From the NCBI GenBank assembly GCA_963782535.1, contig CAWAKE010000009.1, positions 246,222-310,221 on the forward strand: a stretch of DNA of 64,000 bases. The letters are read 5' to 3'. Shown piece after piece: positions 35,685 through 56,095 of the stretch. Origin of the DNA: an uncultured delta proteobacterium (GTDB lineage: Bacteria; Desulfobacterota; Binatia; Binatales; Binataceae). Under the pieces are notes generated by a model, which was not told the origin of the DNA, searched no databases, and saw nothing but the letters and a program-made list of their open reading frames with translations. The translations under genes and the position numbers were made by a program. Every line of letters begins with the position of its first letter. Within the stretch, counting starts at the first letter, position 1.

Positions 35685-35960
35685 AAGCGATTGTCGGGGA
35701 GCCATTACGTGTCAGAACGGCTCCGGGCGACTAGAAGAAGCATTTCGCTTTGAGGGTCAATTGCGAAGCTAACTCGATTCACGCGGGCGTGCCCACGACG
35801 CCCGCGTGAATCGGTTCCGCTGAGGAACCGAACCGTTCACTCTTGCGAGGACCGATCCGACCACCAATCGAAGTAACTATTTGGCGCGGCGTCTGGTCCG
35901 CAGTCGCTGATGTGCCTCCGAATAGTCAGTTGGCGGCGCGAGTGGATAATCCGGCAGGCG

Positions 35961-40709: not shown

Positions 40710-41108
40710 GCCCCGTCGCTGATATCCTCCGTTTCACTCCGTTGCTCCATCGCGCAACGCCCCATCTACCAGCTATCGCTGGCGCGCGTGGCCGGGAAGG
40801 CAAACCTCGCCCTTTCCGCGAGAGTACGGCTTTTCGCACGAAATCATCAACCCGAACTTTTGCCCGTGCGGTTCGAAATCTTCTTGAGGCTTTTCGGTCT
40901 GAGCGAACTATGGACACGGTTTCCAGGTGATGCTTCGCGTGCCGAAGCATCGAGAGATTCCGATACTGACGCAGAACGATGCGACTCGGCTCTCCGCGCG
41001 ATTTCCATGAGGGCCCGCGCCGGATAAAACGGCGGCAGCACGGCATTCGGCGATTCAGCGCGAGCGCAGGTTCAGTTCACTGGCAATCTGGTCGTGCGAC
41101 TATCGCAC

Positions 41109-42398
41109 TTATGATTCGCCGTTCTGGCTGATCATGCGGTGAAACTGCACGCTCGCCGCGACCGCCGGGAGGAATCGGGTCTTGAACGCCTCGGGCGAAA
41201 GATTGGTCTCTTTCGCGAGCCGCGTGAGCATCGGTTCCTCCAGATCCTCGGCCTCAAGTCGAATCATGTACGAGCGCGCCACCTGATACGATTCCGCCGT
41301 CACGTCAACGCTGCGCGTGCGCACTCGGCCGGTTGCTGGGTCGAGCATCTCGTCGAGTTTGATCGGTTTGATCCGCCCGTTGACGACCGCGATCATTGCG
41401 CCCGAATTACCGCCGAGCAGATAGCGCACCGCACCGTAGCCAAGCGTGCGGGTATAGTCGATGTCGAACGGAAGCGGTCTCGCACAGCGCAACTCATAGC
41501 CGATCTCTTTGTTGACCACAGTCATCTGGATCCCGAGTCCGGCCAACGCCTCACGTACGTTGTCGCGCAGAAATAGCCCGAGCGGAATCTCTCCCAGCCG
41601 TCGATGGCCGTAAGCATCGCGCTCGACGCTTTCTGCCTGCGGCAGCGACGCCGGATCGATGAGTGCGGCAATGCCCTCGGCAATTACTGCCACACCGTCG
41701 GGCCGCCCGTTGGCCCAGCGCTTGATAATTGCGCCCGCGATCAAATCGACCACGGTCGTGAGTTCAAGCTTCGAATCCAGAAACTCCTCGGGGATCAGCG
41801 CCAGGGTCGCGCCCGCAGCCTTGCACATGCCAAGCGCAAGGGCGCCGGAAGTACGCCCCATTGTAACCACCGTGTACCAGCGCCCCGTGGTCAGCGCATC
41901 CTCCATCAAGGACTCGACCACCGTGGTGCCAAACGAACGCGCCGTCTCGAAGCCGAAAGTTGGCAGGTTCTCGGGCAAAGGCAGGTCGTTATCGATAGTT
42001 TTCGGCACCGTGACTATGCTCAGCTTGTGCCCGGCGCGCTCCGCGATCTTGGCCGCGGCAGTTGTCGTGTCGTCACCCCCGATACACACCAGGTAACGGA
42101 CCGAAAGCTCTTCCAGCGACCGCACCGCGCGCTCGAGACTCGCCTCCTCTCGCGCCGGATTGGTGCGCGAGGTTCCGAGAATCGAGCCGCCGGTGAAATG
42201 AATTCGGCTCACATCGGAGATTTTAAGCTCGACCGCGCGCGACGTGTCACCGCGCGCCAGCCAGTGGTACCCTTGTGGAATTCCGATTACCCGCAGCCCC
42301 GAGTTGATTGCCTCGATAGTCGCCGCTGCAATCACTGCGTTGATCCCGGGGGCGGGTCCACCGCCTACCAAGATCGCCAATGTCTGCTTCTGTGGCAT
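41109..42398 (-). CDS. pfp: 6-phosphofructokinase, pyrophosphate-dependent type
   Basis: LAILVGGGPAPGINAVI, GGDDT (Asp where ATP-PFKs have Gly) and PKTIDND (Lys where ATP-PFKs have Gly), MGR substrate motif. Start trimmed to MPQKQTL. Confidence 0.75.
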   Translation of the reverse strand: MPQKQTLAILVGGGPAPGINAVIAAATIEAINSGLRVIGIPQGYHWLARGDTSRAVELKISDVSRIHFTGGSILGTSRTNPAREEASLERAVRSLEELSVRYLVCIGGDDTTTAAAKIAERAGHKLSIVTVPKTIDNDLPLPENLPTFGFETARSFGTTVVESLMEDALTTGRWYTVVTMGRTSGALALGMCKAAGATLALIPEEFLDSKLELTTVVDLIAGAIIKRWANGRPDGVAVIAEGIAALIDPASLPQAESVERDAYGHRRLGEIPLGLFLRDNVREALAGLGIQMTVVNKEIGYELRCARPLPFDIDYTRTLGYGAVRYLLGGNSGAMIAVVNGRIKPIKLDEMLDPATGRVRTRSVDVTAESYQVARSYMIRLEAEDLEEPMLTRLAKETNLSPEAFKTRFLPAVAASVQFHRMISQNGES

Positions 42399-42952
42399 GA
42401 TTATAGACCTTGTACCCACCCGCCTCCTGACGGCCTTTCAGCGCCAGGTTGTGATTGTTGTTCTGGCGCAATAGTTCGAGATCGCTGGCGAAGAAATTGC
42501 GAAAGTGAATCGGAGCGCGTCTCTTCGCCGGCGAATCCCACAATCGAGCAACCGATGCCGTGTTGGCTTTTCGCGTCCCCTATAAGAATTATCCCTCGGA
42601 CCGGCGCCAGTCGAATGCCCTTCATTCTGCTGATGCGATTATCCCCCTGTTCGCGCCCCGCACGTCCGTCGCAGTTACTGGGGTTCCGCAGCCTGCCGAC
42701 CGGCGCCAGCGCACCGGCTGTGACCGATCCATGAGTTACCATTGCCATCGCCGAAGCCGCCGATTGCTCACACATCACCTGATAAGCAATTTTTGCTCCC
42801 GTGCGGTCCCTCGCACTGCTTACTCTCATAAGAGGTGGCTATTCGAAATTCACGCAGTAGGGTCAACGCAGGCCTTGCGCAGTTCCGGATTGTTGTAATA
42901 GATGAGCTATCGACAGATTAGTAATTGAGACGACGCTTCATAAGGAGAAATC

Positions 42953-43330
42953 ATGGCTGCCAATTGCGAAAAAGTTGTTAGCGATCTGTTCGCGGCGTGG
43001 ACCCGTCTGAACGTCGATGACGTCATGACATATTTCACCGAGGATGCCGTATGGGACAATGTCCCCATGGGCCCGGCCAAAGGGCAGGCCGCCATCCGTG
43101 AGATGACGCATGGTTTCATGAAGGATGCGAGCACGTTCAGCGCCAAGATCCTCAAGACCGCTCATGTCGACAACGTGGTCTTCAACGAGCGTGTGGACAC
43201 GATCGTTATGAAGAACGGCAAGAAGGCCGATATTCCGGTCGCTGGAATGTTCGAGCTGAATGACGCCGGCAAAATTAAAGTCTGGCGCGACTATTTCGAC
43301 CTCGGGACTTTCACCAAGCAGGTTTCCTAG
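42953..43330 (+). CDS. limonene-1,2-epoxide hydrolase family protein (LimA-like, NTF2 fold)
   Basis: 125 aa; ends ...KVWRDYFDLGTF. The WRDYFDL heptapeptide is identical to the Rhodococcus LimA active-site segment. NERVD (catalytic Arg/Asp) and DNVPM (Asn) are also present. Strong AAGGAGA RBS. Confidence 0.8.
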   Translation: MAANCEKVVSDLFAAWTRLNVDDVMTYFTEDAVWDNVPMGPAKGQAAIREMTHGFMKDASTFSAKILKTAHVDNVVFNERVDTIVMKNGKKADIPVAGMFELNDAGKIKVWRDYFDLGTFTKQVS

Positions 43331-43478
43331 GTGCGTAGTTACAGGCGGCGCGCCTGACCGCCATCTTGCTCAATCACTTGCCCTTGCCGCGCGCATTCCC
43401 ACGGTAGATGCGTACGCGTATCGATTGGTATTCCTCGTTCGGAAGTTGGCGCCGTGATACTCACGAGAAACCTGAGAG

Positions 43479-44707
43479 ATGAATCGAACTCAAGCAGAAA
43501 ACGAAAAGAGGCCGCCGGCTGATGAAGCGCGTCTGGCCGGCCGGCTTCTGATCGAGCGGGCAATAGGACTCGCTGCGGGATTGCGCGAAAGATCCGACGA
43601 AGGCACCCGCCTTCGCCGCCTGCCCGATGGAAGCTGGAATGCGTTGCTCGATTCGGGCGTGCTACGAGGGCTGCAACCGTCCCGCTGGGGCGGGGGGAAA
43701 CAAATCTCCGCGACTTTTTTACCGCGGTTTCGGAGGTCGCAAGAGCCGACGGTTCCGCCGGTTGGGTGGCCGGAATTGTCGGCGTGCATCCATGGCAACT
43801 CGCATTTTTCCCAATCGAAACCCAACAGGAAGTTTGGGGCGGCGATCCGACCGTGATGCACTCCTCGTCCTATGCCCCTACCGGGCGAGCGGAAAAGGTC
43901 AGCGGTGGATATCGGCTGAATGGGCGCTGGTCCTTTTCGACCGGTTGCGATCACTGCCAATGGGTCAATCTCGGCGCGGTCACCGGCCCAATCGAAATCG
44001 ACGGAACCCCGGTCCAGGATTTTCGCTCGTTTATGCTGCCGCGTCGCGATTATAAAATCGACGACAACTGGCGCGTCGCCGGACTCTGCGGCACCGGCAG
44101 CAAGGATATCGTGGTAGAAAATGCGTTCGTGCCTGCACACCGCAGCCAATCGCATTGGGACTACATGCTGGGACGCGAAATGCCGGGATGGGAGTTCAAT
44201 CCGGCGCCGCTCTATCGCTTGCCGTTCGCGGCAGTTTTCAATTACGCGCTGTCCGCCTCCGTCCTCGGCGCCACGCGCGGATTCCTCGATGCCTGGATTG
44301 AGAGCACCCGGCCCCGCAAACTGGGTCTCGGCGGAATAGCCAGTGAAGATCCCTTCATCCAGAAGCTCCTCTCCGAAGCCGATTACGCGATTGACGCGGG
44401 CATGCTCAAGCTCCGCCGCGACTGCGACGAGTTGATGGACGCGGGCCGCGCGAGCGTCAGCCTCTCCCTGCAACGCCGCGCGGCAATTCGCTACAACGCC
44501 TGCCGCTCGGCGCAATTGGCCGCTCGCGCAATCGACCGCCTGTTTGAGTCGAGTACCGGCAAAGCGATTTTCCTCGATCATCCGCTGCAGCGGCGCTACC
44601 AGGATATCAAGGCGATGCTCGGCCACGCTTACCTCACTGCCGACAGTCCTGCGCGCATGCACGGCGCCATCGCGCTTGGCCAACCGGTAGTCAATCCGAT
44701 GCTGTGA
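43479..44707 (+). pseudogene. ACAD-fold flavin-dependent monooxygenase (HsaA/DszC/HpaH-like), frameshifted
   Basis: N-terminal 70 aa (frame of 43479) read ..LPDGSWNALLDSGVLRGLQPSRWGGG. The continuation ETNLRDFFTAVSEVARADGSAGWVAGIVGVHPWQLAFF... to the C-terminus is in the +1 frame (track ORF 43766..44707). The break falls in the G6 run at about 43692-43697. One extra G would restore a single ~410-aa ORF. Confidence 0.6.
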
Positions 44708-45120
44708 GCGACCTCCGTTTGCGATCGCAAAGGCCGTGCGGCGTCTCCTCATAAGGTACGGCCAATAAGTGACGGCACACTCCGGACAGTGTCGATTTAC
44801 GCCCGTTCACCTTACCGAACCTGTGCTGCGGCCAAATCGGACCCCTTTGATTATCTCGCTGGCCGCCGTTTTTCGCAATCCGACGCTGGTCATTAGGGCG
44901 GCGCCTGCTCCTCGATGCGGCATCTGTCCGCCGATCCGCGCCTCCCTCTCCAAACCAGTCGCGGGTTCGCTGCGTCACCGGTAATCTTAGCGGAATTATG
45001 ATGACCGACTGGCTACGCTCGGAGCATCAGGGTAATCGTTGCACTGGCGGCCGTCGGGTTACTATTCGCAGTTAGGCCCAGGGCTGTGGCATCTCGCGCC
45101 CAGGCTGACGAGCTCGAAGA

Positions 45121-46743
45121 ATGAAGCGGGAAAGTGGAATGAATATCGGTGACGCGAACGCGGTGATTGCCGCTAACTTGAGTGGGCGCGGGCGTTTGAG
45201 TCGCGTAGCCGTGCCGCGTTGTCGGCGTTTACTCAGATCCATCGCGGTCACGGCAATACTTGTAATCGCATTAGTTGAACCCGTAAAAGTCCACGCGGCA
45301 ATCGACCTGTTAACTATCGCCGGTCAACCGGTAGTGCTGAGCGCAACCGAACAAAACCGCGAACAGGTCTGGAACTGGTTCCCTGCCACCGACCCGGCGC
45401 AGGGGCCGGATTACCAGAACCGCTATAACTTCATGGGTAGCTGGATTCGGGTCGGCCTCGGTTACCAACTCGACGGTATCAAAGCCTTCGCCGAACTGAT
45501 GAGCCCATTTCTTATAAACCTGCCGGACGATGCGATTGTCGCTCCGCCGCCGGGTAAGGTCGGACCGCAAGGGCTGCTAGGTCTCGGCGCCAACTACTAT
45601 CAACCGCATCAGAATCCGAACGACGCCAGCGTCTTTCTCAAGCAGGCCTACCTCGAATTCGGACGCAACCTGATGCCCGGCTTCAATTTCAAGGGCGGCC
45701 GCTTCGAATTATTCGACGGGCTCGAATACCTGCCTGCGGAACTCAACCCGCAGCTCAGGTGGCTGGCCACCAACCGCATCGCACAGCGGCTGATCGGTAA
45801 TTTCGGCTTCAGTGACATCATGCGATCGTTTGACGGTGCGGTCGCAACCTACGGTAACGATACGTGGCAGGCGACCGTTATGTACGGTGTCCCGACCAAG
45901 GGCGTGTTCGACCTCAACGCCATGGAAGAGGTGCGCAATATGGACGTGGCCTATGCGTCGCTCAACGCTGGGCCGAGCGCTTTTCAATCCGATCTGTGGG
46001 GCGATTCTATCGGCCGGTTCTTCTATATCTATTACAACGACAGTCGCGGGCTGGCGCTGGTGGATAATCGCAGCCTGAGCGCAACGGCGGCTACGGGACC
46101 CGTCTCGATTGACACGGTGGGCGCGGATTACGCTCGCACGCTGACCGTGGGTCCGGGCAGCGCAGACTTTCTATTGTGGGGCGCAGGACAGTTCGGGTCC
46201 TGGGGTGCGCTCAGCCAGCGCGCCTACGCGATGGTGGCTGAGACCGGATATCGGTTTACCCATGCGCCCTGGAAGCCATGGCTACGCCTTGGTTACACCA
46301 TCGGTTCAGGCGACGGTAACAACCATGACTCGACCCACGCCACCTTCTTTCAGATTCTTCCCACCGCCCGGATTTACGCGATGACACCGATTTACAATAT
46401 GATGAATATCAACGACGCTATGGCGCAGTTGATGCTCGACCCGCTCACGAATCTCCAGATCCAAAGTGCGCTCCATGGATTGTGGCTCGACGCCAAAAAG
46501 GATCGCTGGTACGCGGGCGGAGGCGCTTTCGACAACCGAATCTTTGGTTATGCTGCGCGGCCCAGCAATGGTTACGGCTATCTCGGCACCCTGGCGGATT
46601 GTCAGATGACGTGGAAGGCTAACTCGCACTTTGCGTTGCAGCTTTACTACGGTCACGTCTTTGGTGGCAGTGTAGTCGGCAGTATCTATCCCGCGGGCCG
46701 CGAGTCTGACTACGGCTTTATTCAGACAACGTGGTCCCTCTAG
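45121..46743 (+). CDS. putative outer-membrane beta-barrel protein (alginate-export/DUF1302-like)
   Basis: N-terminal signal-like hydrophobic segment (LLRSIAVTAILVIALVEPVKVHAA), Gly/Tyr/Asn-rich alternating amphipathic strands throughout, aromatic C-terminal residue (..TTWSL). Family assignment is by general resemblance only. Confidence 0.45.
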   Translation: MKRESGMNIGDANAVIAANLSGRGRLSRVAVPRCRRLLRSIAVTAILVIALVEPVKVHAAIDLLTIAGQPVVLSATEQNREQVWNWFPATDPAQGPDYQNRYNFMGSWIRVGLGYQLDGIKAFAELMSPFLINLPDDAIVAPPPGKVGPQGLLGLGANYYQPHQNPNDASVFLKQAYLEFGRNLMPGFNFKGGRFELFDGLEYLPAELNPQLRWLATNRIAQRLIGNFGFSDIMRSFDGAVATYGNDTWQATVMYGVPTKGVFDLNAMEEVRNMDVAYASLNAGPSAFQSDLWGDSIGRFFYIYYNDSRGLALVDNRSLSATAATGPVSIDTVGADYARTLTVGPGSADFLLWGAGQFGSWGALSQRAYAMVAETGYRFTHAPWKPWLRLGYTIGSGDGNNHDSTHATFFQILPTARIYAMTPIYNMMNINDAMAQLMLDPLTNLQIQSALHGLWLDAKKDRWYAGGGAFDNRIFGYAARPSNGYGYLGTLADCQMTWKANSHFALQLYYGHVFGGSVVGSIYPAGRESDYGFIQTTWSL

Positions 46744-46914
46744 CAAGGCGATGAACGCGGTTCCGAGTAGTATGAACGATCGCCTCACTCTGTATCATGG
46801 TTCGATGTGCGAATGGGCTGATGATGGCTGGACACCGGCTCAAGTGAAGTCCGAGTGCGAATTTGAGCATGAATAATCAGCGACCATGCAAGTCGTCTGC
46901 GAGATGGATTAATT

Positions 46915-47523
46915 ATGGCCAAACATAAGCATGGCGAACACGGCGGCGACGATCGGCATGGCGCACGGCAACCCGAGCGGTTCGATCCTGCCCGCGCGGC
47001 GCTGCTCGACGATCCTGCGCGCTTCGAATATTTGCCGCCGGACGAAGTATTCGCGCTGTCGGCAGCGCCGGCCGGTGGCCGCGTTGTGGATTTCGGCACC
47101 GGAACGGGAGCCTATGCAATCGAGCTTGCCAAGCGGCGGCCCGACCTTGAGGTGATTGCGCTCGACGAACAGGCGCAGATGCTCGATCTGCTGCGGGCGA
47201 AGCCAGCGGCGATAAAGCTCGCAAATCTCAGTCCGGTTCACACTGCCGAAATCGCGCGGCTGCGCGGCACCGCCGATCGGGTGCTCGCGCTCAACGTATT
47301 GCACGAGGTCGGCGATGAGGCCTTGCTTGCGCTGGCGGCTCTGCTCAAGCCCGATGGCGCGGCGCTCATCGCTGACTGGAACGCCGGCGTCGAGCGCGCG
47401 GTGGGTCCGCCGCCAGACCATGTATACACGGTCGCGGAAGCCTGTGAGCGGATCCAGCGCGCCGGCCCCCGCATCGAGAGCGAGCACATGTTGAAATATC
47501 ATTACGCACTGATCGCGCGTTAG
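46915..47523 (+). CDS. class I SAM-dependent methyltransferase (small, His-rich N-terminus)
   Basis: Motif I VVDFGTGTGAYAIELA, acidic post-I residue (ALDE), motif II/III region. N-terminus MAKHKHGEHGGDDRHG. No conserved Cys triad, so not a canonical ArsM. Confidence 0.7.
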   Translation: MAKHKHGEHGGDDRHGARQPERFDPARAALLDDPARFEYLPPDEVFALSAAPAGGRVVDFGTGTGAYAIELAKRRPDLEVIALDEQAQMLDLLRAKPAAIKLANLSPVHTAEIARLRGTADRVLALNVLHEVGDEALLALAALLKPDGAALIADWNAGVERAVGPPPDHVYTVAEACERIQRAGPRIESEHMLKYHYALIAR

Positions 47524-47681
47524 CAGTTTCAACGTTGGCCCGACCGCGGGGGACCCGGAGCGGCTCGAAGCGATGGCGATGAGCCATCGTGCGCGGAGAG
47601 GCCGGCGAAATGCCCTTCCCCGCGCAGAATCGTCGGGCTCGCCCGGGCCGGCCCGAAGCGGAAAATGCGACTGATTCCCGA

Positions 47682-48212
47682 TCAGCAGCATGCTCCCGGT
47701 TTGCGCGGTTGCGCGGTATCGTGTGAGGCCGCGGGCACGCAGCAGGGCGCGTCTGAGGCTTCGGCGGCGGAGCTTTTACGATTGTGAAGCGGGATGCAAC
47801 AAGGCTCACCGTCAGAGCGCCTCATGCTCGTATCGTTGCCAAAGATTGGCACTTCGCCGAGAGTCTGAAAGTTCTCCCAAGCAAGGCCCTGCGGGTCGAG
47901 CACCCAATATTTGTTTCCCTTGGCGTAGCAACATTCGACCTCGGTCTCTTTTAAAGCCGCGGCCCCGCTCGCCTGCTCGGCGCGCATACTCAGTTCCGCG
48001 AGTTCCGCCGAATCCTCGGCCTGAAATCCCAAGTGATTGAGGCCGGGTTGGTGACCGCGCGCTGAAATCGCAAAATTTATGCGCGGCTCCTCCAGCATCC
48101 ACTTGGCATAATCGGCTCGCACAACCGTCGGCTGGATGCCGAACAAATCGGTATAGAACTTGATACTTACTTCCAGATTTTCCACTGCAACGTGAACATG
48201 AAAGCGTTTCAT
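47682..48212 (-). CDS. ArsI/CadI-family VOC (glyoxalase-fold) metalloenzyme
   Basis: Glyoxalase-like betaalphabetabetabeta start (MKRFHVHVAVENLEVSIKFYTDLFG), vicinal cysteine pair ..ETEVECCYAKG.. at about residues 94-95, and a C-terminal tail with three more Cys pairs (EPCCIPLH, APCCVPAAS, GACC). Confidence 0.6.
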   Translation of the reverse strand: MKRFHVHVAVENLEVSIKFYTDLFGIQPTVVRADYAKWMLEEPRINFAISARGHQPGLNHLGFQAEDSAELAELSMRAEQASGAAALKETEVECCYAKGNKYWVLDPQGLAWENFQTLGEVPIFGNDTSMRRSDGEPCCIPLHNRKSSAAEASDAPCCVPAASHDTAQPRKPGACC

Positions 48213-48593
48213 AGAGGCCTCCTCATTCTTGTTTAAAGAAATCTTGCGACAGGCTCGCCGGATGCCGCCGATTGCTTAACTCGCTCGAGCTTCAAGCTTG
48301 ACTGACGCTACTTATAATTCTATAAATATAAAACTATAGAGATGTCAAGCGGGCGACCTGCAGCCGTCGCCGAAATCCGCGGCCGACGCTCAACCTGGGA
48401 CCTCTCAATACCGAAGTGTAGGGAATCCAGGCGTGGACAGTTCGTTTAGTGGTCCCACTTTGCGAGGTAAGCGAGTTTTCGTGAATCAGAGGTTAACGCA
48501 GCGTTACGTCTTGGTTTGTTTTCGGTTGAATCACGCGAACGCAAGCCTTCGAAGATTGATTTCATCAAGGCATAACTCTAGACAGGTAGAACT

Positions 48594-48974
48594 ATGAGGA
48601 AATCGAATGTCATCTCGGGGTTGAGTGCCTTAGCTCAGGAAACCCGTCTCGATATCTTCCGGCTGCTGGTGACGAGAGGGCCCGAGGGACTGCCGGCGGG
48701 TGAAATCGGCATGCGTCTTGGACAGCCCTCGCCCACGCTTTCGTTTCATTTGAATCAGCTCAGGTTCGCTGGGCTCGTGACTTCACGCCGTGAGAGCCGC
48801 TCAATTCTTTACAGCGCAAACTTCAAGGCGATGAACGATTTACTCGCTTATCTGACGGAAAACTGCTGTGGTGGACGCTCGGACTTGTGCGCTCTCGATG
48901 CGTCCGCAACTCGCGAATCAATTCCGGCCTCGATAAAAGCCACGCGTGGCAATAGGACCGACGGTAAAAAATAG
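48594..48974 (+). CDS. arsR: ArsR/SmtB-family metalloregulator
   Basis: LAQETRLDIFRLLV...EIGMRLGQPSPTLSFHLNQLRFAGLV winged-HTH core plus C-terminal Cys cluster ENCCGGRSDLC (type-2 As(III)-binding site arrangement). Divergent from the VOC gene, upstream of acr3. Confidence 0.8.
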   Translation: MRKSNVISGLSALAQETRLDIFRLLVTRGPEGLPAGEIGMRLGQPSPTLSFHLNQLRFAGLVTSRRESRSILYSANFKAMNDLLAYLTENCCGGRSDLCALDASATRESIPASIKATRGNRTDGKK

Positions 48975-49230
48975 GAGAGGGCTCAATGGCCCGTCGCGAA
49001 TTAAACTACCGGTATCGACGATGCAAAGCGCAAATTCTTTTCCCGCATCTATTCGGAACTGGAGAATCGCATAAAAATCATTGCCAGCTTGCCGATCGAT
49101 GCCCTCGACCGCCAGAAGCTGGAGAATCATGCACGCGAGATTGGCAAGGTGAAGCTTCCGAGTAAGGAAGAACGTTGAACACGCCCGTTCGCGATTTGAT
49201 AATGTCCCAACCCGCACCCAGGAGAATACC

Positions 49231-50370
49231 ATGAGCGCGATTCCGGCGAAGCCGGATACTCACATCATGAGGCGGTTGTCGTTTCTCGACCGCTACCTGA
49301 CGCTTTGGATATTTTTTGCGATGGCGCTGGGAGTCGCGATGGGAAATATCCGGCCCGGCGTGAAAGGAGCATTCGATCGACTGACTATCGGAACGACATC
49401 CGTACCGATTGCGATCGGGCTGATCTTGATGATGTATCCGCCGCTGGCAAAAGTAAATTACGACGAACTCGGCGACGTGTTTCGGAACTGGAAGATTCTG
49501 GGCCTATCGCTGGTGCAGAACTGGATCATCGGTCCCGTCCTGATGTTCGCGCTCGCAGTGATCTTTCTGCGCGACCGCCCCGAGTACATGATCGGTCTCA
49601 TCATGATCGGTATCGCGCGCTGTATCGCGATGGTGATCGTGTGGAACGACCTGGCCGATGGCGACGCCGAATATTGCGCCGGATTGGTGGCCTTCAACTC
49701 AATTTTTCAAGTGCTCTTCTATTCGGTCTATGCCTTTGTCCTGATTACTGTTGTCCCGCGGTGGTTCGGGCTTGCCGGTTCGGTCGTGCACATCACGATC
49801 GGTCAAATTGCCGAAAGCGTGGCGATCTACCTCGGGATGCCTTTTGTAGCGGGATTCGCTACATGGAAGGTGCTTACCCATCGCAAGGGTAAGCTCTGGT
49901 ATCGAGAACATTTTATTCCGAAGGTGAGTCCGCTCACCTTGATTTTTCTTCTATTCACTATTGCTGTGATGTTTTCGATCAAGGGTGCTGCGATCCTTCA
50001 ACTGCCGCTCGACGTTGTACGAATCGCGGTACCGTTGCTGCTCTATTTCGCGATCATGTTCGGCGTCTCTTTCATACTGAGCATGAAGGCGGGCGCGACT
50101 TATCCGCAGACGGCTACGCTCTCATTCACTGCCGCATCCAATAATTTTGAACTCGCGATCGCGGTCGCGGTGGCGACCTTCGGCATCGACAGTGGGGCCG
50201 CCTTCGCCGCTGTCATAGGGCCATTGATCGAAGTTCCGGTAATGATCGGATTAGTTGACGTAGCGCTGTGGGCGCGGCGCAGATATTTCGCCGATTCGAC
50301 GGCCACGATCTCCGCGGCGGAATGTTGCAACACGGCGGTCGAAAGCGCCCGCCGCAACCGGCGGATATGA
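49231..50370 (+). CDS. acr3: ACR3-family arsenite efflux permease
   Basis: [21 protein letters not shown] hallmark, conserved TM4 cysteine in [17 protein letters not shown], 10 TM helices, 379 aa. Confidence 0.9.
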
Positions 50371-50434
50371 GTATTCAGGTTGGTTCGCAGCCCTTATGCT
50401 GGACAACCGCGGCGTGTCGCATTACTGCTAGCTC

Positions 50435-50728
50435 ATGGCCATCGACAAGCACGAGTACATAGCCGCTTATGAATCGCACCACGTAGGTTATCTCGAGAGC
50501 TTCGGCGATTACGAAATGGCCGCGCAGTTCCTTCATGGCTGGACCACTGACGTGCATACGTGGCCGATCTGCATCTACGACAGTGCCGACAACCACTTAT
50601 GGCTATGGTGTGGATATAGGACGCTTGATATCAGCCGCGAATCGGCACTCGAAGACGCCCGCGCAATTCTCCGGCTCGGAGCAGATCATCAATTCAGCAA
50701 GATCGAAACAATGGCCGAGAATTTGTGA
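50435..50728 (+). CDS. hypothetical protein (orphan, lower GC)
   Basis: 97-aa ORF MAIDKHEYIAAYESHHVGYLESFGDYEMAAQFLHGWTTDVHTWPICIYDS... No recognisable domain. Lies between acr3 and the IS5 left end. Confidence 0.3.
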   Translation: MAIDKHEYIAAYESHHVGYLESFGDYEMAAQFLHGWTTDVHTWPICIYDSADNHLWLWCGYRTLDISRESALEDARAILRLGADHQFSKIETMAENL

Positions 50729-50759
50729 GCGATGACGATCAAGGGATAGCCGGCGTTAG

Positions 50760-51932
50760 GGAGCCTCTGCACAGGTCGTCATACAGCGGCAGTTCGACAT
50801 AGTAATGAGGATTATGAGGAGGAACGGCAGCAGCGCGCTGGGGTGATCGCTGCTGAGAAGCCATCAGGAGCATTGGTTGCCTCTGGTTCTTGTTCACAAC
50901 CCACACCAGGCCCCGGCTGGGAGCAACCGATGCCGGAGTTGGTAGAGATTGGCCAGCGCGAACATGGTTTCGGCCCGAGCCAGATTCTTGGCCAGCCCGC
51001 GATATCTAACCTTGCTGAAGCCCCACAACTGCTTGAGTACGCGGAAGGCATGCTCGCCGCAAGCGCGGGTGCGCGAACGCACCCGGTTGATCATCCGCCA
51101 GCGCTTGCTCAACGGCCGCTGCGCGGTAGGACGGCGATTGATCCGATAATGTATTCCCCGCGATTCAAGGAAGCTGCGGTCATCTTCCTTCCAATACGCC
51201 TGGTCGCCGAACACCTCGCGCTCGTACCCGTGCAAAAGCTCCGGCAGTTGGGTGACATCGGCGACCGCGGCGTCGGTCGCGGTTACGCTGTGCACGATGC
51301 CACGCTGGTCAGCCCCGATGTGCAGTTTCATCCCGAAGTGCCAGTTCTGGCCCTTACGAGTCTGCTTCATCTCGGGGTCGCGCGTCCCACTGGCGTTCTT
51401 GGTGGAACTCGGCGCCGCGATGATGGTCGCGTCCACAATCGTCCCCGAGCGCAGCAACAGGCCGCGGGTCTCGAGCAGACCGCCGATCGCGGCGAAGATT
51501 GCCTTGGTCAAATTGTGCTTCTCGAGCAGATGACGAAAACGCAGAATCGTGGTCTCATCCGGCACCGTGTCCTCGCCCAGCTCCACCTTGGCAAACCGAC
51601 GCATCGACTCACTGTCGTAGATCGCGTCCTCGGCCTGCGGGTCGGAGAGATTGAACCATTGTTGCAGGAAGTAGATGCGCAGCATCTTCTCCAGCCCCAG
51701 TGGCTGGCGCCCGTTGCCGGCTTTGGGGTAATGAGGCTCGATCAGGCGCAAAAGCCGCGCCCACGGAATCACCGCATCCATCTCGCCCAGGAATCGCTCG
51801 CGCCGGGTAACTTTGCCTTTCCCATTCCATGCCATCGATGCGAACGTCCGCTGATTCCCCATCACCGCACCTCCACTCCTGCCGCTCCCACTTATGATTT
51901 ATACCAAACCGAAACACTTGTGCAGAGGTTCC
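50760..51932 (-). mobile_element. IS5-family insertion sequence (IS5 group), intact, with 4-bp TTAG target-site duplication
   Basis: Imperfect terminal inverted repeats GGAGCCTCTGCACAGGTCGT (left, from ~50760) and GGAACCTCTGCACAAGTGTT (right, reverse complement, ending ~51932), 16 of 20 identical. Flanked by TTAG at 50756-50759 and 51933-51936. Encloses one transposase ORF. Confidence 0.8.
50894..51865 (-). CDS. IS5-family DDE transposase
   Basis: 323 aa with the IS5 signature KQTRKGQNWHFGMKLHIGADQRGIVHSVTATDAAVADVTQ...GDQAYW (DDE triad region). Confidence 0.9.
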   Translation of the reverse strand: MMGNQRTFASMAWNGKGKVTRRERFLGEMDAVIPWARLLRLIEPHYPKAGNGRQPLGLEKMLRIYFLQQWFNLSDPQAEDAIYDSESMRRFAKVELGEDTVPDETTILRFRHLLEKHNLTKAIFAAIGGLLETRGLLLRSGTIVDATIIAAPSSTKNASGTRDPEMKQTRKGQNWHFGMKLHIGADQRGIVHSVTATDAAVADVTQLPELLHGYEREVFGDQAYWKEDDRSFLESRGIHYRINRRPTAQRPLSKRWRMINRVRSRTRACGEHAFRVLKQLWGFSKVRYRGLAKNLARAETMFALANLYQLRHRLLPAGAWCGL

Positions 51933-51943
51933 TTAGTGATTGA

Positions 51944-53506
51944 CTAGGAGTCCGTCCGAGAAATTTCGCCGGTTAAGTTGATCTCCGGATTGGAGCGATT
52001 GGCTATTGATGATGCCGGTCGCCCCAGGATCCTGCGAAGCGCCGGCTGGTCGGCTGGCGACTACAAAGAGGTGCGCGTTTTGCTGCGGTATTTCTCGTGA
52101 CCGCCTGGATGACGGTTACGCATTGCAGAGCCGGTGCAACTTCAAAATGTTGTGGGTGAGACAGACCAGCGCCCACTCGCCCCGGACTTTAGCCAAGCCG
52201 CGCAAAAGAAAGCGGCGAAACCCGCGGGCCTCTTTGATCTGGCCGAAGACCGGCTCCACGATCGTTTTCCGTGTCACATAGATTGCCCGCCCCACCTTAG
52301 TCTGAAGCTTGCGTTTCATGCGGTCGACCCGCGTCGCATTGCGCGGTAACGGTCCGCGCGAGCAGGGCTGGCGGTATTCGTCATGCTTCTGCTTGCCAGT
52401 CGCGATATAGCAATCGATCGGGTCTCCAGACTGACCGAGAGCCGCCAGATACGCGAGGTTCTTCTCCGAGCAATAGCCACTGTCGGCCACGAGGCCGGTG
52501 GGTCGCTGTCCGCTCTGTTGCTCGATCACCTGGACCATCGGTTCGATTTGCTGTTTATCGTTGGCTGCCGGCGTCACGCTCTGCCCCACGATTAACTGCA
52601 ACACCGGCTCCACTGCCGCCTGCGCATTGTAGCCTTGCACCAGACCGTCGCTGCCCTGCATCAGGCGCGACTCCGGGTCGGTGAAATTGTATTGATCTTT
52701 GTCCGCGGGCTTCGCCGATTGCACTTCTGCGCGCGGCTTTCCGGCCTTCTCCGCCGACTGCCGCGCCCGCTCTTCCAGCGCCCGTTGCGCCGCGCGAATC
52801 TTCCTTAGCCGGCTCTCGCGCCGCTGCAACTCTGCGGGTAGCTCGTCGCCCCGCCGATCGGCCCCGTAGTGCGCGTCTTCGGCGGCGTCCACCGCCTCGG
52901 CCTGGGCCAGCAGTTCCCGGACCTCTGCGCGCAGTTGCCGTTGCCGCTCCTGCATCCGGCCATAGCTCATCGCTTTGTGCTTGCTGGCGTTGGCTTTCAG
53001 CTTGGTGCCGTCCAACGCCACCCGCCCCAGTTTCAGCGCTCCCGCTTCCAGCGCGATCTTCAGCACCTCTTCAAACAGCCCGGCCAGCGTCGCCAGATGG
53101 AGCTTGCGAAAATCTGCGATGGTACGGAAGTTCGGCGCGTTGCCCGCCGCCAGCACGCGAAACCCCACGTCCTCGATTAAACGCCGCTCGATGCGCCGCG
53201 AGCTAAATACCCCCACGCAATACCCATACACCAGCACCTTGGTCATCATCCGCGGATCGTAGGGCGGCTGCCCGCGTTGCTCGTCCCCATACGCCGCATC
53301 CAGCGCCGATAGGTTCAGATTGTCGACCACATCGCTGACGAAGTAGACCAGATGATTCTCGGGCAACCATTCACGCAGGCTCGGGGGAAGCAGAAACTCT
53401 TGATCCGGATGGTACGGTCGGTAGCTCTTACCCATGCCTAATTATCTACTACTCACACCCCGTTTTCTTCCTCAGTCAAATAACTATTTCTCGGACACGC
53501 TCCTAG
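51944..53506 (-). mobile_element. IS1182-family insertion sequence
   Basis: 21-bp imperfect IRs CTAGGAGTCCGTCCGAGAAAT (51944-51964) and CTAGGAGCGTGTCCGAGAAAT (reverse complement of 53486-53506), 18 of 21 identical. Encloses one 439-aa transposase gene. Begins 7 bp from the IS5 right-hand TSD. Confidence 0.7.
52116..53435 (-). CDS. IS1182-family transposase
   Basis: MGKSYRPYHPDQEFLLPPSLREWLPENHLVYFVSD N-terminus characteristic of IS1182-family transposases. Coiled-coil middle and C-terminal DDE domain (DSGYCSEKNL). Confidence 0.85.
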   Translation of the reverse strand: MGKSYRPYHPDQEFLLPPSLREWLPENHLVYFVSDVVDNLNLSALDAAYGDEQRGQPPYDPRMMTKVLVYGYCVGVFSSRRIERRLIEDVGFRVLAAGNAPNFRTIADFRKLHLATLAGLFEEVLKIALEAGALKLGRVALDGTKLKANASKHKAMSYGRMQERQRQLRAEVRELLAQAEAVDAAEDAHYGADRRGDELPAELQRRESRLRKIRAAQRALEERARQSAEKAGKPRAEVQSAKPADKDQYNFTDPESRLMQGSDGLVQGYNAQAAVEPVLQLIVGQSVTPAANDKQQIEPMVQVIEQQSGQRPTGLVADSGYCSEKNLAYLAALGQSGDPIDCYIATGKQKHDEYRQPCSRGPLPRNATRVDRMKRKLQTKVGRAIYVTRKTIVEPVFGQIKEARGFRRFLLRGLAKVRGEWALVCLTHNILKLHRLCNA

Positions 53507-53594
53507 GCCCCCGACGCGCTGTGCATCGGGGGCCTACCTCACGTGATTTCAACAACGTTCGCGATAGTAAGTCGGAAGAATTCAGATGGCGGCT

Positions 53595-54713
53595 TCAGGC
53601 GGCCACATGAGCCGTCATCGTGAGATCCGCGGGCTCCTGCAAGGGCTCGGTCTTCCAGCTCTTGACTTCGGGCATCACGTGTTTGACGAAGCATTTCAAG
53701 TTTCGCTCGGCTTCGTCGTATGGCATGCCGGCGTAGCTGAAGTTGAGCATGAAGCCGTTCGCGTCGATGGTCTCGCGGATCGTAGAGAGCTTCTCGATCA
53801 CCTGGCCCGGGGTCCCCCACGGCATCAATTTCGCAAAGTCGGCGGCCGCACCATCGATTCCGTGCTTAGCGATAAACTTGCCGACCTGACTATAGAATTC
53901 ATAACCCTTCTGACTGCCGAATTTGGACGAGGTCATTTCATAATGTTTAATCACCGTCCGGTATTGTGCGGATAGCCACTTCATCGCCTGCTCTTCGGCG
54001 CGGTCCTTGTTCTCATCGACAAACACGAAGCCTCCGCTCAGCGGTTTCGGCGCCGGTGTGGCTCCGTTAACTTCGCGCCACACGCGATGGTAGTTTTCGA
54101 AATCGACCTTTACGGCCTCCCACGGCTTCTGGGGAATGACCAGCAGACCGACGCCAAGCTTGGCCATGATCGGCATCGATTCTGGCGATACCGCGGCGGC
54201 ATAGGTGCGGCCTTTGAAGGACTTAAAAGGAAAGGGCCGAATTTCGCGGCGCGGCTGCTTGGTGTAGGCGCCGCCTTCCATGTAACCGGTTTCGAGGGCT
54301 CGCGTGATCAGCTGTGCATATTCGACGAAGAGATTCCGCCCTTCGTTTTGATCGAGGCGAAAGCCATCGTACTCGATTGGCGCAAGTCCGCGGCCGATCC
54401 CGAAGAGAAAGCGGCCGTCTGATACATGGTCGAGCATTGAGGCCTGCTCGGCGACACGAATCGGGTCATGCCAGGGGAGGACCACGACCATCGAGCCGAG
54501 CTTCACATGCTTGGTTCGCCCTGCCATGTAAGTCAGAAATTGAACGGGATCGGGACACATTGTGTAATCATCAAAATGATGTTCAATCGACCAGACGGAA
54601 TCGAAACCCAAGGGCTCGGCCATCTCGGCGAGTCGGATTTCATTGCGCCAGACCTCGCGGTCGGAGAGTTGATTATTGGGGTTTTGAAAGACTAATCCAT
54701 AACCGACGTGCAT
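53595..54713 (-). CDS. LLM-class flavin-dependent oxidoreductase
   Basis: Trimmed to MHVGYGLVFQNP; FDSVWSIEHHFDDYTMCPDPVQFL, KLGSMVVVLPWHDPIRVAEQASMLDHVSDGRFLFGIGRG. Confidence 0.8.
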   Translation of the reverse strand: MHVGYGLVFQNPNNQLSDREVWRNEIRLAEMAEPLGFDSVWSIEHHFDDYTMCPDPVQFLTYMAGRTKHVKLGSMVVVLPWHDPIRVAEQASMLDHVSDGRFLFGIGRGLAPIEYDGFRLDQNEGRNLFVEYAQLITRALETGYMEGGAYTKQPRREIRPFPFKSFKGRTYAAAVSPESMPIMAKLGVGLLVIPQKPWEAVKVDFENYHRVWREVNGATPAPKPLSGGFVFVDENKDRAEEQAMKWLSAQYRTVIKHYEMTSSKFGSQKGYEFYSQVGKFIAKHGIDGAAADFAKLMPWGTPGQVIEKLSTIRETIDANGFMLNFSYAGMPYDEAERNLKCFVKHVMPEVKSWKTEPLQEPADLTMTAHVAA

Positions 54714-54798
54714 AGTAGCCTCCTCGGGGGCAGAATTTTCCACGAAAGTTGACCGCACTCGCCACCGACAAATCTCTCAGGTTTTTATCGTCGCCATA

Positions 54799-55656
54799 TC
54801 AGAAACGGGCCTTCGGTACCGGAAGTCCCGCGATTTCCGAGCGCGCACGAAAGACGGTGCCCTTGAGATCGCGATTCTCAGTATTGTTTGCGGTAACCAC
54901 ATAGAGATCGCACATATCCGGACCGCCAAACGCGAGGCTCGTCACGGTTCGCGCTGGGATCTTGATTCGTTGGTCGAGCGTGCCGTTGCTTTTGAAGCGG
55001 ACTACTTCACCGGGACCGGCGACGACCGCAACCCAGACCCCGCCTTCCGCGTCAATCGTCAATCCATCCGGCATACCCTCGGGCAGCCGCGCAAATACGC
55101 GGCGATCACTGACGGTACGGTCCGGACGTACGTCATGCACCCAAATCGCGCGCGTGGTTGAATCGCTATGATAAAGCAGCTTGCGATCGCGGCTGAATCC
55201 AAGGCCATTAGTCACTTCCACGCCTTCCCACAATTTGGTGACTTTTCCCGGCGGATCGATCCGGAAAAGTGAACCGGGCGGAGGGGTGCTCTTGAAGTCG
55301 AACTGGTTAATGTCGCAGCCGAAGGTTCCACTCCATATACTACCTTGGTCGTCGACAGTTAGGTCATTCATGCCGAAGAGTGGTTTTCCCTCCCACTGCG
55401 CAAACAAATCGGTGATGCGTCCGCTTTTCTCATCCCAATGCGCCAGTGTCGCTCCGGTGACGATCAATCCGCCCGAAGCGTTCAAGGCGATACCGCCCAC
55501 GGACTTGCGTCCCGGTATCAGAGTTTCAATCGCGCCATCGGGACTGCGCCGGAAAACGCCACCACCGCGTATGTCGCTATAGTAAAGGCGATTTTGCTCA
55601 TCGGTCCGCGGTCCTTCGAGTAGGCCGTAGCCGGTTGCCAAGGTTTCGAATTGCAT
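54799..55656 (-). CDS. SMP-30/gluconolactonase/LRE-family six-bladed beta-propeller hydrolase
   Basis: 285 aa. EGP..D...LYYSD opening, repeated ..DG.L.. blades, PDGLTIDAEGGVWVA. Confidence 0.8.
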   Translation of the reverse strand: MQFETLATGYGLLEGPRTDEQNRLYYSDIRGGGVFRRSPDGAIETLIPGRKSVGGIALNASGGLIVTGATLAHWDEKSGRITDLFAQWEGKPLFGMNDLTVDDQGSIWSGTFGCDINQFDFKSTPPPGSLFRIDPPGKVTKLWEGVEVTNGLGFSRDRKLLYHSDSTTRAIWVHDVRPDRTVSDRRVFARLPEGMPDGLTIDAEGGVWVAVVAGPGEVVRFKSNGTLDQRIKIPARTVTSLAFGGPDMCDLYVVTANNTENRDLKGTVFRARSEIAGLPVPKARF

Positions 55657-56095
55657 AGGCCTGTTCCTTTACGCCGTCGCTAAAACTATGATTCCTGATC
55701 GGGCAAGACTCGCGATGTCGAGATCTTGCGGTACACCCCCAACGACGCCGCGAGCGAAGCCGCAGCGAGTACGCAATCTTCAATCCGTTCCGCGGGGCCG
55801 GTCACCAGCGAACCCGCGGAGTCGCCACCATAATTGTCCGAAACTTACCGCTGTTGCATTATTGACTGCAAACGGTATTGGAGACTGGGCAAAGGTGGGG
55901 ATGGGGAACCGACCCTGCGCACGCGATACGCGATATCCTTGGCGCTGGCTGTTGCGCCAATAGGGTGGTAATCAGTCACATGTCGAACCGATCGCTCGGC
56001 CCGCAATTTGGACGGAGGCTAACGGGTGGAATGGGGTTAAGCCTATTCATCGCGAATGCTCGATTGGCGCGGCGATTTAACAATGGGAGAGCAAA

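Follow-up and report, generated by a model that had tools for sequence, protein, structure and literature searches.

A probable, partly decayed arsenic-resistance cluster of Candidatus Binataceae with an ArsI-like gene divergent from arsR

Genes and regulatory features of the locus

The locus lies within a stretch of 64,000 nucleotides (64 kb), which was analyzed as a whole and is referred to here as the window. It contains the following features:

46915-47523, plus strand: 202-residue class I SAM-dependent methyltransferase, outside the module and convergent with the arsI-like gene
47590-47656: two GC-rich inverted repeats (arms 47590-47599/47617-47626 and 47633-47644/47645-47656) in the 158-bp spacer between the methyltransferase and arsI-like genes
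47682-48212, minus strand: arsI-like gene, encoding a 176-residue VOC/glyoxalase-fold protein of the ArsI/CadI family
48296-48350: conserved 55-bp intergenic element in which two predicted sigma-70-like promoters diverge and overlap
48298 (TTGACT) and 48321 (TATAAA), 17-nt spacer, plus strand: predicted promoter towards arsR
48348-48343 (TTGACA) and 48325-48320 (TTATAG), 17-nt spacer, minus strand: predicted promoter towards the arsI-like gene
48594-48974, plus strand: arsR, encoding a 126-residue ArsR/SmtB repressor with a C-terminal C91-C92-X6-C99 site
49005-49178, plus strand: arsC pseudogene remnant, the last ~53 codons of an arsenate reductase of the low-molecular-weight (LMW) phosphatase type
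49231-50370, plus strand: acr3, encoding a 379-residue ACR3-family arsenite efflux permease
50435-50728, plus strand: orf97, outside the module, a backbone gene for a 97-residue conserved protein of unassigned function restricted to Binataceae
50757-53506, minus strand: two IS elements 7 bp apart, a later insertion that does not flank the ars module
50757-50776 and 51916-51935: repeats of the IS5-family element (transposase 50894-51865; NCBIfam IS5_4, 327 bits)
51944-51964 and 53486-53506: repeats of the IS1182-family element (transposase 52116-53435; NCBIfam IS1182, 359 bits)

The cluster itself consists of four parts: the arsI-like gene on the minus strand, and arsR, the arsC stump, and acr3 on the plus strand. 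All four reading frames named in a preliminary description of this DNA (methyltransferase, arsI-like gene, arsR, and acr3) are present at the positions listed above; the arsC remnant and the bidirectional promoter element had been overlooked. A related locus, L090, has this module at the corresponding site, is collinear with the window at ~90% nucleotide identity, and lacks both IS elements. Relative to L090, the intact genes have dN/dS values of 0.07-0.32, and all are under purifying selection.

arsR and acr3 are canonical, and their reading as an arsenic unit holds, with both products scoring above curated profile cut-offs. ArsR matches NF033788 at 63.1 bits (cut-off, 55) and the Pfam domain HTH_20 (6.5e-13), is 76% identical to its counterpart in a rhodanese-arsR-arsC-acr3 operon (L082), and has a dN/dS of 0.14; the C-terminal CC..C site noted earlier was found as C91, C92, and C99. 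Acr3 matches TIGR00832 at 438.9 bits (cut-off, 282.8) and is 87% identical to the L082 permease, with a dN/dS of 0.11. Its anticipated conserved cysteine is C131 in the motif RCIAMV, accompanied by E334 in EVPVM; these correspond to the conserved Cys and Glu of the family.

The 256-bp spacer between arsR and acr3 was considered as a regulatory region and rejected, as it holds the remains of arsC. In a tblastn search, residues 118-169 (of 172) of the L082 LMWPc protein align with positions 49011-49169 at 49% identity (E = 4e-13). The remnant lacks a start codon and is preceded by an in-frame stop; nothing is left of the catalytic N-terminal region with its Cys loop. Its dN/dS against L090 is 0.61, above the 0.07-0.32 range of the intact genes, indicating relaxed constraint. 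Since only this 3' stump of arsC is left, the cluster no longer encodes arsenate reduction; no other arsC was found within the 64-kb window.

When the intergenic regions on the VOC gene side of four diverged loci (the window, L090, L089, and L082) are aligned, the 55-bp element stands out as the sole block of strong conservation; it occurs in L001, L082-L085, and L090. Its two -35 boxes are arranged as a 7-bp inverted repeat (GCTTGAC/GTCAAGC), and its core motif is found nowhere else in the window, where 0 matches are expected by chance. Positions 48296-48350 presumably form the ArsR operator region. Judged by its sequence, the element ties the arsI-like gene and the arsR operon together. A generic scan for promoters and terminators returned no more sites than shuffled sequence did; it passed over the conserved element, whose two promoters went uncalled on account of -10 boxes ending in A or G. 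An Rfam search of positions 46000-51000 at E <= 1 gave no match, leaving the long spacers without an explanation as riboswitches or small RNAs.

The ArsI-like protein and its cysteine-rich tail

The ArsI-like protein comprises a core (residues 1-122) and a Cys-rich tail (residues 123-176). The preliminary description of a glyoxalase-fold protein resembling ArsI or CadI, with a vicinal CC at 94-95, is confirmed by profile, alignment, and fold. The NCBIfam model NF041414, which covers ArsI and CadI together and does not split the two, matches at 121.2 bits (cut-off, 116) across all of its positions (1-147 of 147). This margin is narrow, at only 5 bits. A phmmer comparison with ArsI of Thermomonospora curvata (TcArsI; 5c4p) gave an E value of 2.7e-20, and in the alignment H5/H60/E113 correspond to Q8/H65/E117, C94-C95 to C98-C99, Y35 to Y38, and K101 to K105. 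In TcArsI, Gln8/His65/Glu117 form the Fe(II) triad, Cys98-Cys99 binds the trivalent organoarsenical, and Tyr38, Gln103, and Lys105 are second-sphere residues, with Gln103 reported to contact Fe(II) via water (PMC6138428, PMC12607644). The preliminary description had tied its assignment to this triad, which is intact in the window protein; H5/H60/E113, C94-C95, Y35, and K101 are moreover invariant in 81/81 relatives. The position of TcArsI Gln103 is occupied by G99 here and by Ser in 78 of the 81 relatives.

For a structural view, we used an AlphaFold2 (AF2) model built from a 114-sequence alignment; a 20-sequence alignment had given a pLDDT of 50 and was set aside. The core is predicted with pLDDT >90 and the tail with pLDDT <50. 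Foldseek ranks 1-15 in the PDB are all C-As lyase entries (E down to 2.6e-12; target-normalised TM, 0.80-0.88), and the next-best VOC protein reaches a TM of 0.67. The gene has a dN/dS of 0.19 relative to L090. Based on these residues and the modelled fold, the protein is apparently an intact enzyme of the C-As lyase type, one that we would expect to be active.

Relatives of this protein are numerous, with the clade spanning at least 595 species-level loci and at least 169 plasmid records. Among 80 species-level loci, arsR lies directly upstream of the ArsI-like gene in 74 and acr3 is nearby in 48. The close Binataceae homologues adjoin either rhodanese-arsR-arsC-acr3 or arsM, arsJ with its GAPDH gene, and acr3. 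The arsI-like gene of the window is divergent from arsR; in most relatives it is downstream of arsR.

We considered whether the VOC protein could instead be a metal(loid) binder of the CadI or chaperone type, using its eight cysteines to hold Cd(II) or As(III) and having no C-As lyase activity. NF041414 spans both families, the protein carries four CC pairs, its disordered Cys-rich tail resembles those of metallochaperones, and vicinal pairs are known to bind As(III) in ArsD (PMC12607644). However, the Fe(II) triad, Y35, and K101, all invariant among the 81 relatives, would be needless in a mere thiol sink, and As(III) is reported not to bind ArsI significantly (PMC12607644). The genomic context, too, is specific to arsenic (arsR with its Cys triad, acr3, arsC, arsM, arsJ), with no Cd or Zn transporter nearby. 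We therefore regard this alternative as unlikely and favor the C-As lyase assignment.

Three further CC pairs lie in the tail (138-139, 157-158, and 175-176). They had been pointed out in the preliminary description and are indeed there, but they are nothing special, since CC-rich tails are universal in this ArsI clade: each of the 81 relatives has one to five CC pairs, and a tail with three is the family norm. The tail is intrinsically disordered in the structural model. One speculative role is that of a built-in As(III) acceptor, which would take the released As(III) and hand it to the pump, in the manner of an ArsD-like chaperone fused to the enzyme; we consider this doubtful. In Binataceae, the Acr3 pump has itself gained a C-terminal CC pair (at 365-366 in the window), putatively cytoplasmic, that would fit such a hand-over. 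As a general partner of CC tails, this pair was rejected: it is confined to Binataceae Acr3 and occurs in 5/49 Acr3 tails examined. The searchable literature yielded no statement on the universal CC-rich tail of the ArsI clade, which is apparently unstudied and makes a cheap experimental target.

Composition and surroundings of the cluster

The module had been described as lower in GC and, on that basis, as consistent with horizontal acquisition. The arsI-like gene (GC, 0.573), arsR (0.551), and acr3 (0.553) are modestly low (0.55-0.57 versus 0.60), but the methyltransferase gene (0.655) is among the most GC-rich in the window. Compared with 53 other genes (mean, 0.600; standard deviation, 0.032), the ars genes have z scores of -0.85 to -1.5, and five to nine other window genes are as low or lower. 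The description of a lower-GC module is not borne out as it stood, and codon usage is host-like. By the length-corrected Karlin B statistic, acr3 (rank 39/56), the VOC gene (47/56), and the methyltransferase gene (55/56) are typical, and arsR alone is somewhat deviant (rank 5/56; z = 1.7).

These data bear on the possibility that the module was recently gained from a lower-GC donor and mobilised by the IS elements beside it. In favor of this, no 2.7-kb stretch of the window has a lower GC than the block running from the VOC gene to acr3 (0.544, within the lowest 1.6% of sliding windows), the IS5 and IS1182 transposase genes lie 0.4 kb downstream, and orthologues of orf97 elsewhere have no ars genes upstream, which implies that the module was inserted at some time. 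Yet the low GC of the block is due in part to two long, AT-richer spacers (0.49 and 0.52). Gene by gene, GC stays within 1.5 standard deviations of the host genes, and the native orf97 is lower still (0.531). The nearest relatives of all three ars genes are from Binataceae and have equal GC (acr3, 0.554-0.561; arsR, 0.571-0.572; VOC gene, 0.573-0.595, in other Binataceae contigs), so the dip is a trait of the gene families rather than a mark of foreignness.

Each IS element is bounded by inverted repeats of its own and shows a target duplication (TTAG/CTAG). Both are on one side of the module, and L090, although collinear elsewhere, lacks segment 50763-53504; the pair is a later insertion specific to the window. 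A composite transposon or genomic island was rejected accordingly, since the IS elements are on one side only and L090 keeps the module without them. A near-identity search of 72,556 plasmids gave no close match, returning only a 75% acr3 fragment in Xanthomonas. Finding the module at the same site in a 90%-identical relative does not support recent foreign acquisition, which appears quite improbable; the case for horizontal transfer is weak.

The methyltransferase and orf97 are backbone genes that flank the cluster. orf97 was tried as an ars companion, as it starts 64 bp downstream of acr3 and has a dN/dS of 0.067, and was rejected on the non-ars backbone contexts of its orthologues: in other genomes its neighbours are SGL, ECH, and luciferase-like genes, ars genes are lacking from the vicinity, and none of its 82 homologues is annotated. 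The methyltransferase does have the reported His-rich N-terminus (H4, H6, H9, and H15) and lacks the Cys triad of ArsM, as had been noted. It matches only generic Pfam methyltransferase domains, no ArsM model is among the 16 NCBIfam matches, and its best solved relative is a protein of uncharacterised function (3dh0; E = 4e-15).

The suggestion that this methyltransferase is a functional ars partner, for instance one that methylates arsenic or a thiol co-substrate, does not hold up and is very improbable. It adjoins the arsI-like gene in the window, L001, and L090, and the VOC homologues in L086 and L089 do adjoin a methyltransferase; however, the one in L086 is a true ArsM (NF008823; 376 bits) unrelated to that of the window (tblastn E >1). 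The window enzyme is absent from 80/80 ArsI-like loci, and ars genes are absent from 80/80 loci with its orthologues. Orthologues at 75-81% identity occur in sulfur- or redox-type neighbourhoods, and the genes found beside the orthologues are instead rhodanese, metallo-beta-lactamase-fold, AhpD-like, and PrdB-like genes. The single cysteine, C177, is not conserved, being Arg in orthologues, and the GC and codon usage of the gene are unlike those of the ars genes. Finally, the gene converges on the arsI-like gene, does not share the conserved promoter, and is separated by the GC-rich hairpins, which are possibly transcription stops.

Proposed function and comparison with known systems

Taken together, positions 47682-50370 are likely to be an ordinary, partly decayed arsenic-resistance cluster typical of Candidatus Binataceae, for which we propose a mode of action that includes C-As cleavage. 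ArsR would occupy the 55-bp element and repress both the arsI-like gene and the transcription unit of arsR, the arsC stump, and acr3. As in other members of its family, binding of As(III) or methylarsenite at C91/C92/C99 would free ArsR from the DNA. The ArsI-like enzyme could then hold a trivalent organoarsenical at C94-C95 while Fe(II), bound by H5/H60/E113, and O2 cleave the C-As bond to give As(III), a step that the residues and fold make plausible. Acr3, by its family membership, would export the As(III).

The value of the locus is modest: it places an apparently intact ArsI-type gene, presumably under ArsR-type control, in a widespread uncultured lineage of soil and peat. In sister genomes, the arsI-like gene lies directly beside arsM and arsJ, so Binataceae may both make and unmake methylarsenicals, which would be relevant to arsenic speciation in soil. 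Two points go beyond what annotation pipelines report, namely, the arsC stump and, in Binataceae, a conserved element predicted to be a bidirectional promoter in place of the usual co-directional arsR-arsI operon.

The closest structural comparison is with TcArsI (PDB 5C4P, 5CB9, 5V0F, and others), which shares the single-domain VOC fold (TM up to 0.88), the substrate Cys pair, the metal-binding His and Glu, and the second-sphere Tyr and Lys. The window protein is 33-37% identical to it and differs in having His rather than Gln as first ligand, Gly in place of Gln103, and H7, invariant in its clade, where TcArsI has Ala. It also continues beyond the core for 54 residues as a CC-rich tail; the solved chains stop once the core is complete, at 123-126 residues. 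CadI, a cadmium-induced protein of Mycobacterium tuberculosis, is covered by the same NF041414 model; the window gene is in a purely arsenic context, whereas CadI presumably belongs with TcArsI to an actinobacterial Gln-type branch and lies beside the Cd sensor CmtR.

The window ArsR shares with the Acidithiobacillus ferrooxidans-type repressor (AfArsR) a winged-helix core that is followed, beyond the DNA-binding domain, by a vicinal CC and one further Cys. Its spacing is CC-X6-C, compared with CC-X5-C for the AfArsR site (C95, C96, and C102). The three CC pairs of the tail resemble the several vicinal Cys pairs of ArsD, each a potential As(III) site (PMC12607644). The resemblance comes with no relation in sequence or fold; the tail is predicted to be disordered, and the partner ArsA is absent.

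ArsI of Bacillus sp. MD1, YqcK of B. subtilis, and NsArsI of Nostoc PCC 7120 are assayed or proposed C-As lyases. The Bacillus ArsI has a His variant of the triad in place of Gln (His5/His62/Glu115; PMC12607644), the same His-His-Glu type as in the window protein. Published NsArsI primers (PMC5258700), which we translated, encode an M-K-T-H N-terminus, an internal P-D-Y-A-K, and a K-S-C-C-A C-terminus; over these primer-encoded stretches, the window protein corresponds with MKRFH, DYAKW, and its terminal CC. The Bacillus and Nostoc arsI genes are downstream of arsR in one operon, whereas the window gene is divergent. The arsR-arsI-(arsC)-acr3 operons of Burkholderiales and others encode members of the same clade (46-64% identity, the same invariant residues, CC tails), labelled by PGAP as "ArsI/CadI family heavy metal resistance metalloenzyme". 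In 74/80 of these loci arsR is immediately upstream on the same strand; the Binataceae arsI-like gene instead lies on the opposite strand and shares a predicted bidirectional promoter element with arsR, and in the window arsC has decayed.

The ArsI-like protein and its arsenic context

For each gene, the best homologues belong to metagenome-assembled genomes of Candidatus Binataceae or Binatus, which places the window in the Candidatus Binataceae lineage. The region is arranged as follows.

Features of the ars region
45121-46743: alginate-export-type porin gene, upstream edge of the region
46915-47523, + strand: class I SAM methyltransferase (MT), 202 aa
47682-48212, - strand: glyoxalase/VOC-fold protein (VOC protein), 176 aa
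48296-48350: conserved 55-bp element, GCTTGACTGACGCTACTTATAATTCTATAAATATAAAACTATAGAGATGTCAAGC, in the 381-bp spacer between the VOC gene and arsR
48594-48974, + strand: arsR
49005-49178: 3' stump of an arsC of the low-molecular-weight-phosphatase (LMWP) type, in the 256-bp spacer between arsR and acr3, recognized by alignment with a protein of the related locus L082
49231-50370, + strand: acr3
50435-50728, + strand: orf97, a 97-aa open reading frame
50757-53506: IS5-family and IS1182-family elements, separated by 7 bp and inserted in the spacer that leads from orf97 to a luciferase-like gene; downstream edge of the region

The motifs listed in the preliminary description are real: vicinal Cys pairs at residues 94-95, 138-139, 157-158, and 175-176 of the VOC protein, the C-terminal Cys site of ArsR (C91, C92, C99), the conserved Cys of Acr3 (C131 in RCIAMV), and a His-rich N-terminus in MT, with four His among its first 15 residues. 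Acr3 also has E334 in EVPVM. The VOC protein narrowly passes the NCBIfam model "ArsI/CadI family heavy metal resistance metalloenzyme" (121.2 bits; curated cutoff, 116 bits), and its only solved relatives by sequence are entries for the C-As lyase of Thermomonospora curvata, TcArsI (E 2.5e-20). In TcArsI, the Fe(II) ligands are Gln8, His65, and Glu117 (His5, His62, and Glu115 in Bacillus ArsI), the substrate cysteines are Cys98 and Cys99, and Tyr38, Gln103, and Lys105 lie around the metal (PMC6138428, PMC12607644). The aligned residues in the VOC protein are H5/H60/E113, C94-C95, and Y35/G99/K101, respectively; among these functional residues only Gln103 is not kept, and the first metal ligand is the same His variant as in Bacillus ArsI. 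The Fe(II) ligand triad of ArsI, whose absence the preliminary description had named as a refutation, is thus present. When the orthologous open reading frame was taken from 80 species-level genomes (46-64% identity; 81 sequences with the window), we found H5, H7, Y35, H60, C94, C95, Y96, K101, and E113 invariant in all 81. An AlphaFold model built from 114 homologues is confident over a core of residues 1-122 (pLDDT mostly >90) and predicts a disordered tail (pLDDT <50). Foldseek ranked C-As lyase entries 1 to 15 against the PDB (target-normalized TM, 0.80-0.88; rmsd, 1.9-3.4 Å), with the next VOC protein at 0.67. Judged by its sequence and modeled fold, the VOC protein is a bona fide ArsI/CadI family member whose predicted catalytic apparatus is intact.

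H7 shares a strand with the metal ligand H5, two residues further on; the solved T. curvata enzyme has Ala at this site. Where TcArsI has Gln103, the VOC protein has Gly and most of the clade has Ser (position 99, 78/81 sequences). Either feature could alter the metal environment.

The three extra Cys pairs singled out in the preliminary description are not special to this protein, as CC pairs past the core occur in 81/81 sequences (one in 8, two in 47, three in 19, four in 5, and five in 2), with the recurring pattern ACC(V/A)P ... CC-end. In the TcArsI structures the chain ends with the core (123-126 residues), whereas the VOC protein carries a CC tail. Printed primers for the assayed Nostoc enzyme, NsArsI, translate to a terminal K-S-C-C-A, so at least one characterized ArsI ends in a CC pair; in the searchable literature we found no statement on the function of the CC-rich tail. 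A vicinal CC pair is also seen in the C-terminal tail of Binataceae Acr3, namely, in the window (residues 365-366, 50323-50328), in the related loci L082-L085, and in the collinear relative L090; it is found in 5/49 Acr3 tails and missing in the 44 others adjoining ArsI-like genes.

The main rival reading makes the VOC protein a thiol binder, CadI-like or chaperone-like, that lacks lyase activity. This is disfavored by the invariance of the catalytic residues among relatives and by a gene context that is arsenic-only. The ArsI-like family, named ArsI/CadI by PGAP, is very common, with at least 595 species-level genome loci and 169 plasmid records. Of 80 loci, 74 have a co-directional arsR immediately upstream of the ArsI-like gene, and 48 have an acr3 after it. 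The closest homologues of the VOC protein (74-78% identity) are all Binataceae-like and embedded among arsenic genes: in L082-L085 the ArsI-like gene is divergent from a rhodanese-arsR-LMWP arsC-acr3 operon, in loci L086 and L087 a true arsM (NF008823, 376 bits) precedes it and arsJ (565 bits), the ArsJ-associated GAPDH gene (553 bits), and acr3 are nearby, and in locus L089, where arsR is the divergent partner, a frameshifted arsM comes after the ArsI-like gene. The gene context as a whole argues for arsenic rather than cadmium. In L086 (616-7599), from a sister genome, the strand opposite gapdh-arsJ-acr3 carries a phosphate-binding-protein gene, arsM, the ArsI-like gene, and a rhodanese gene; arsM and the ArsI-like gene are 71 bp apart on the same strand, and thus an arsenite methyltransferase adjoins a putative demethylase.

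A conserved intergenic element and an arsC remnant

Two features escaped the preliminary description. When the spacer between the VOC gene and arsR was aligned among the window, L090, L089, and L082, a single block (48296-48350) remained conserved while the rest diverged. This block reads as two overlapping divergent promoters, with promoter-like TTGACT, 17 nt, TATAAA on the + strand towards arsR and TTGACA, 17 nt, TTATAG on the - strand towards the ArsI-like gene; the -35 boxes form a 7-bp inverted repeat. The core of the element is unique in the window (chance expectation, 0 matches), recurs in L001, L082-L085, and L090, and is common to those Binataceae loci where the ArsI-like gene is set opposite an ars operon. 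It would be a natural place for an ArsR operator governing both transcription units. Within the ~245-nt arsR leader predicted if the conserved promoter is used, 48391-48462 contains an imperfect inverted repeat of 18 nt, with 78% complementarity and a 36-nt loop.

The second feature is the arsC stump. Residues 118-169 of the L082 LMWP-type protein align to 49011-49169 (49% identity, E 4e-13), with an in-frame stop upstream and the start codon absent. The stump is common to the window and L090, and its dN/dS between the two is 0.61, against 0.07-0.32 for intact genes; it evolves under relaxed constraint. We found no other arsC, and no arsM, arsJ, or rhodanese gene, in the 64-kb window.

Origin of the cluster and the neighboring methyltransferase

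MT (METHYLTRANSFERASE) had been proposed as an unrecognized companion of the ars genes, a role that its distribution does not bear out. MT was found in 0/80 ArsI-like genome loci, and an ArsI-like gene, arsR, or acr3 within 5 kb in 0/80 metagenome loci with MT orthologues, many of these contigs being short. In the window, the MT and ArsI-like genes are convergent, with GC-rich hairpins in between. MT matches only generic methyltransferase domains, its best solved relative is 3dh0 (E 4e-15), an uncharacterized protein from Aquifex, comparison with the true L086 ArsM detected no similarity, and its single Cys is Arg in orthologues. It is a well-conserved Binataceae gene (orthologues at 60-94% identity) with the second most typical codon usage in the window (rank 55/56 by deviation from the rest), and a neighbor of the ars cluster rather than a companion. 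Orthologues at 75-81% identity occur in two contexts, a rhodanese - metallo-beta-lactamase-fold - MT - AhpD-like cluster and a position adjoining a PrdB-like gene with an in-frame TGA, plus a small rhodanese. In locus L091 (4561-5361; also L093, L094, L109, L111, and L113) the PrdB/GrdB-like gene was called as two open reading frames (162 + 91 aa), which share a frame with a single in-frame TGA between them and so probably encode a selenoprotein; the small rhodanese-like frame follows. Other recurrent neighbors are an AhpD-like "peroxidase-related enzyme," a 297-aa rhodanese, and a metallo-beta-lactamase-fold gene. Together these neighbors suggest a sulfur/selenium redox role for the MT family.

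The low GC noted earlier held in part. The VOC gene (0.573), arsR (0.551), and acr3 (0.553) are low but not outliers among the 53 other window genes (mean, 0.600; sd, 0.032), and MT is at 0.655. The 2.7-kb ars block is the window's lowest-GC stretch, chiefly owing to the AT-richer spacers within it; among single genes, the backbone gene orf97 falls lower still, at 0.531, and a value of 0.540 was obtained for an MMPL transporter gene (33-36 kb). GC this low is not confined to the ars region: a second such stretch (33270-37019; 0.54-0.55) contains the genes for this MMPL-family membrane protein and for a LigB-type ring-opening dioxygenase. The data do not support recent acquisition of the cluster from a foreign donor of lower GC: acr3, the VOC gene, and MT show typical codon usage, and arsR alone deviates, mildly; orthologous ars genes in other Binataceae have the same GC; and L090, a JGI metagenome contig, is collinear at ~90% nucleotide identity over 40932-50762 and 53505-56253, with identical order (porin-MT-VOC-arsR-stump-acr3-orf97) and spacer lengths. 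The window's 2.7 kb extra to L090 are the two IS elements, each having separate inverted repeats and a duplication of 4 bp (TTAG, CTAG). In more distant Binataceae, orf97 orthologues adjoin the same SGL-lactonase and enoyl-CoA hydratase genes without ars genes, indicating an earlier insertion of the cluster here, for which a source within the family is the simplest assumption. The orf97 family is small (82 members) and Binataceae-like throughout, and it matches nothing in Pfam or NCBIfam; a luciferase-like monooxygenase gene is its third usual neighbor. The 97-aa product is strongly constrained (dN/dS, 0.067).

A model for the unit

We consider it probable that the cluster is a standard ArsR-controlled detoxification unit. 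ArsR would sense trivalent arsenic through its C-terminal Cys cluster, and its release would free the bidirectional promoter in both directions. The ArsI-type dioxygenase would turn methyl- or aryl-As(III) into As(III), which Acr3 would expel, the cluster's own arsenate reductase having been lost. The analysis establishes the family memberships, residues, fold, synteny, and selection, and from these the enzyme activity, inducer specificity, and operator binding are inferred. The gene arrangement is lineage-specific, in an otherwise known kind of ars unit.
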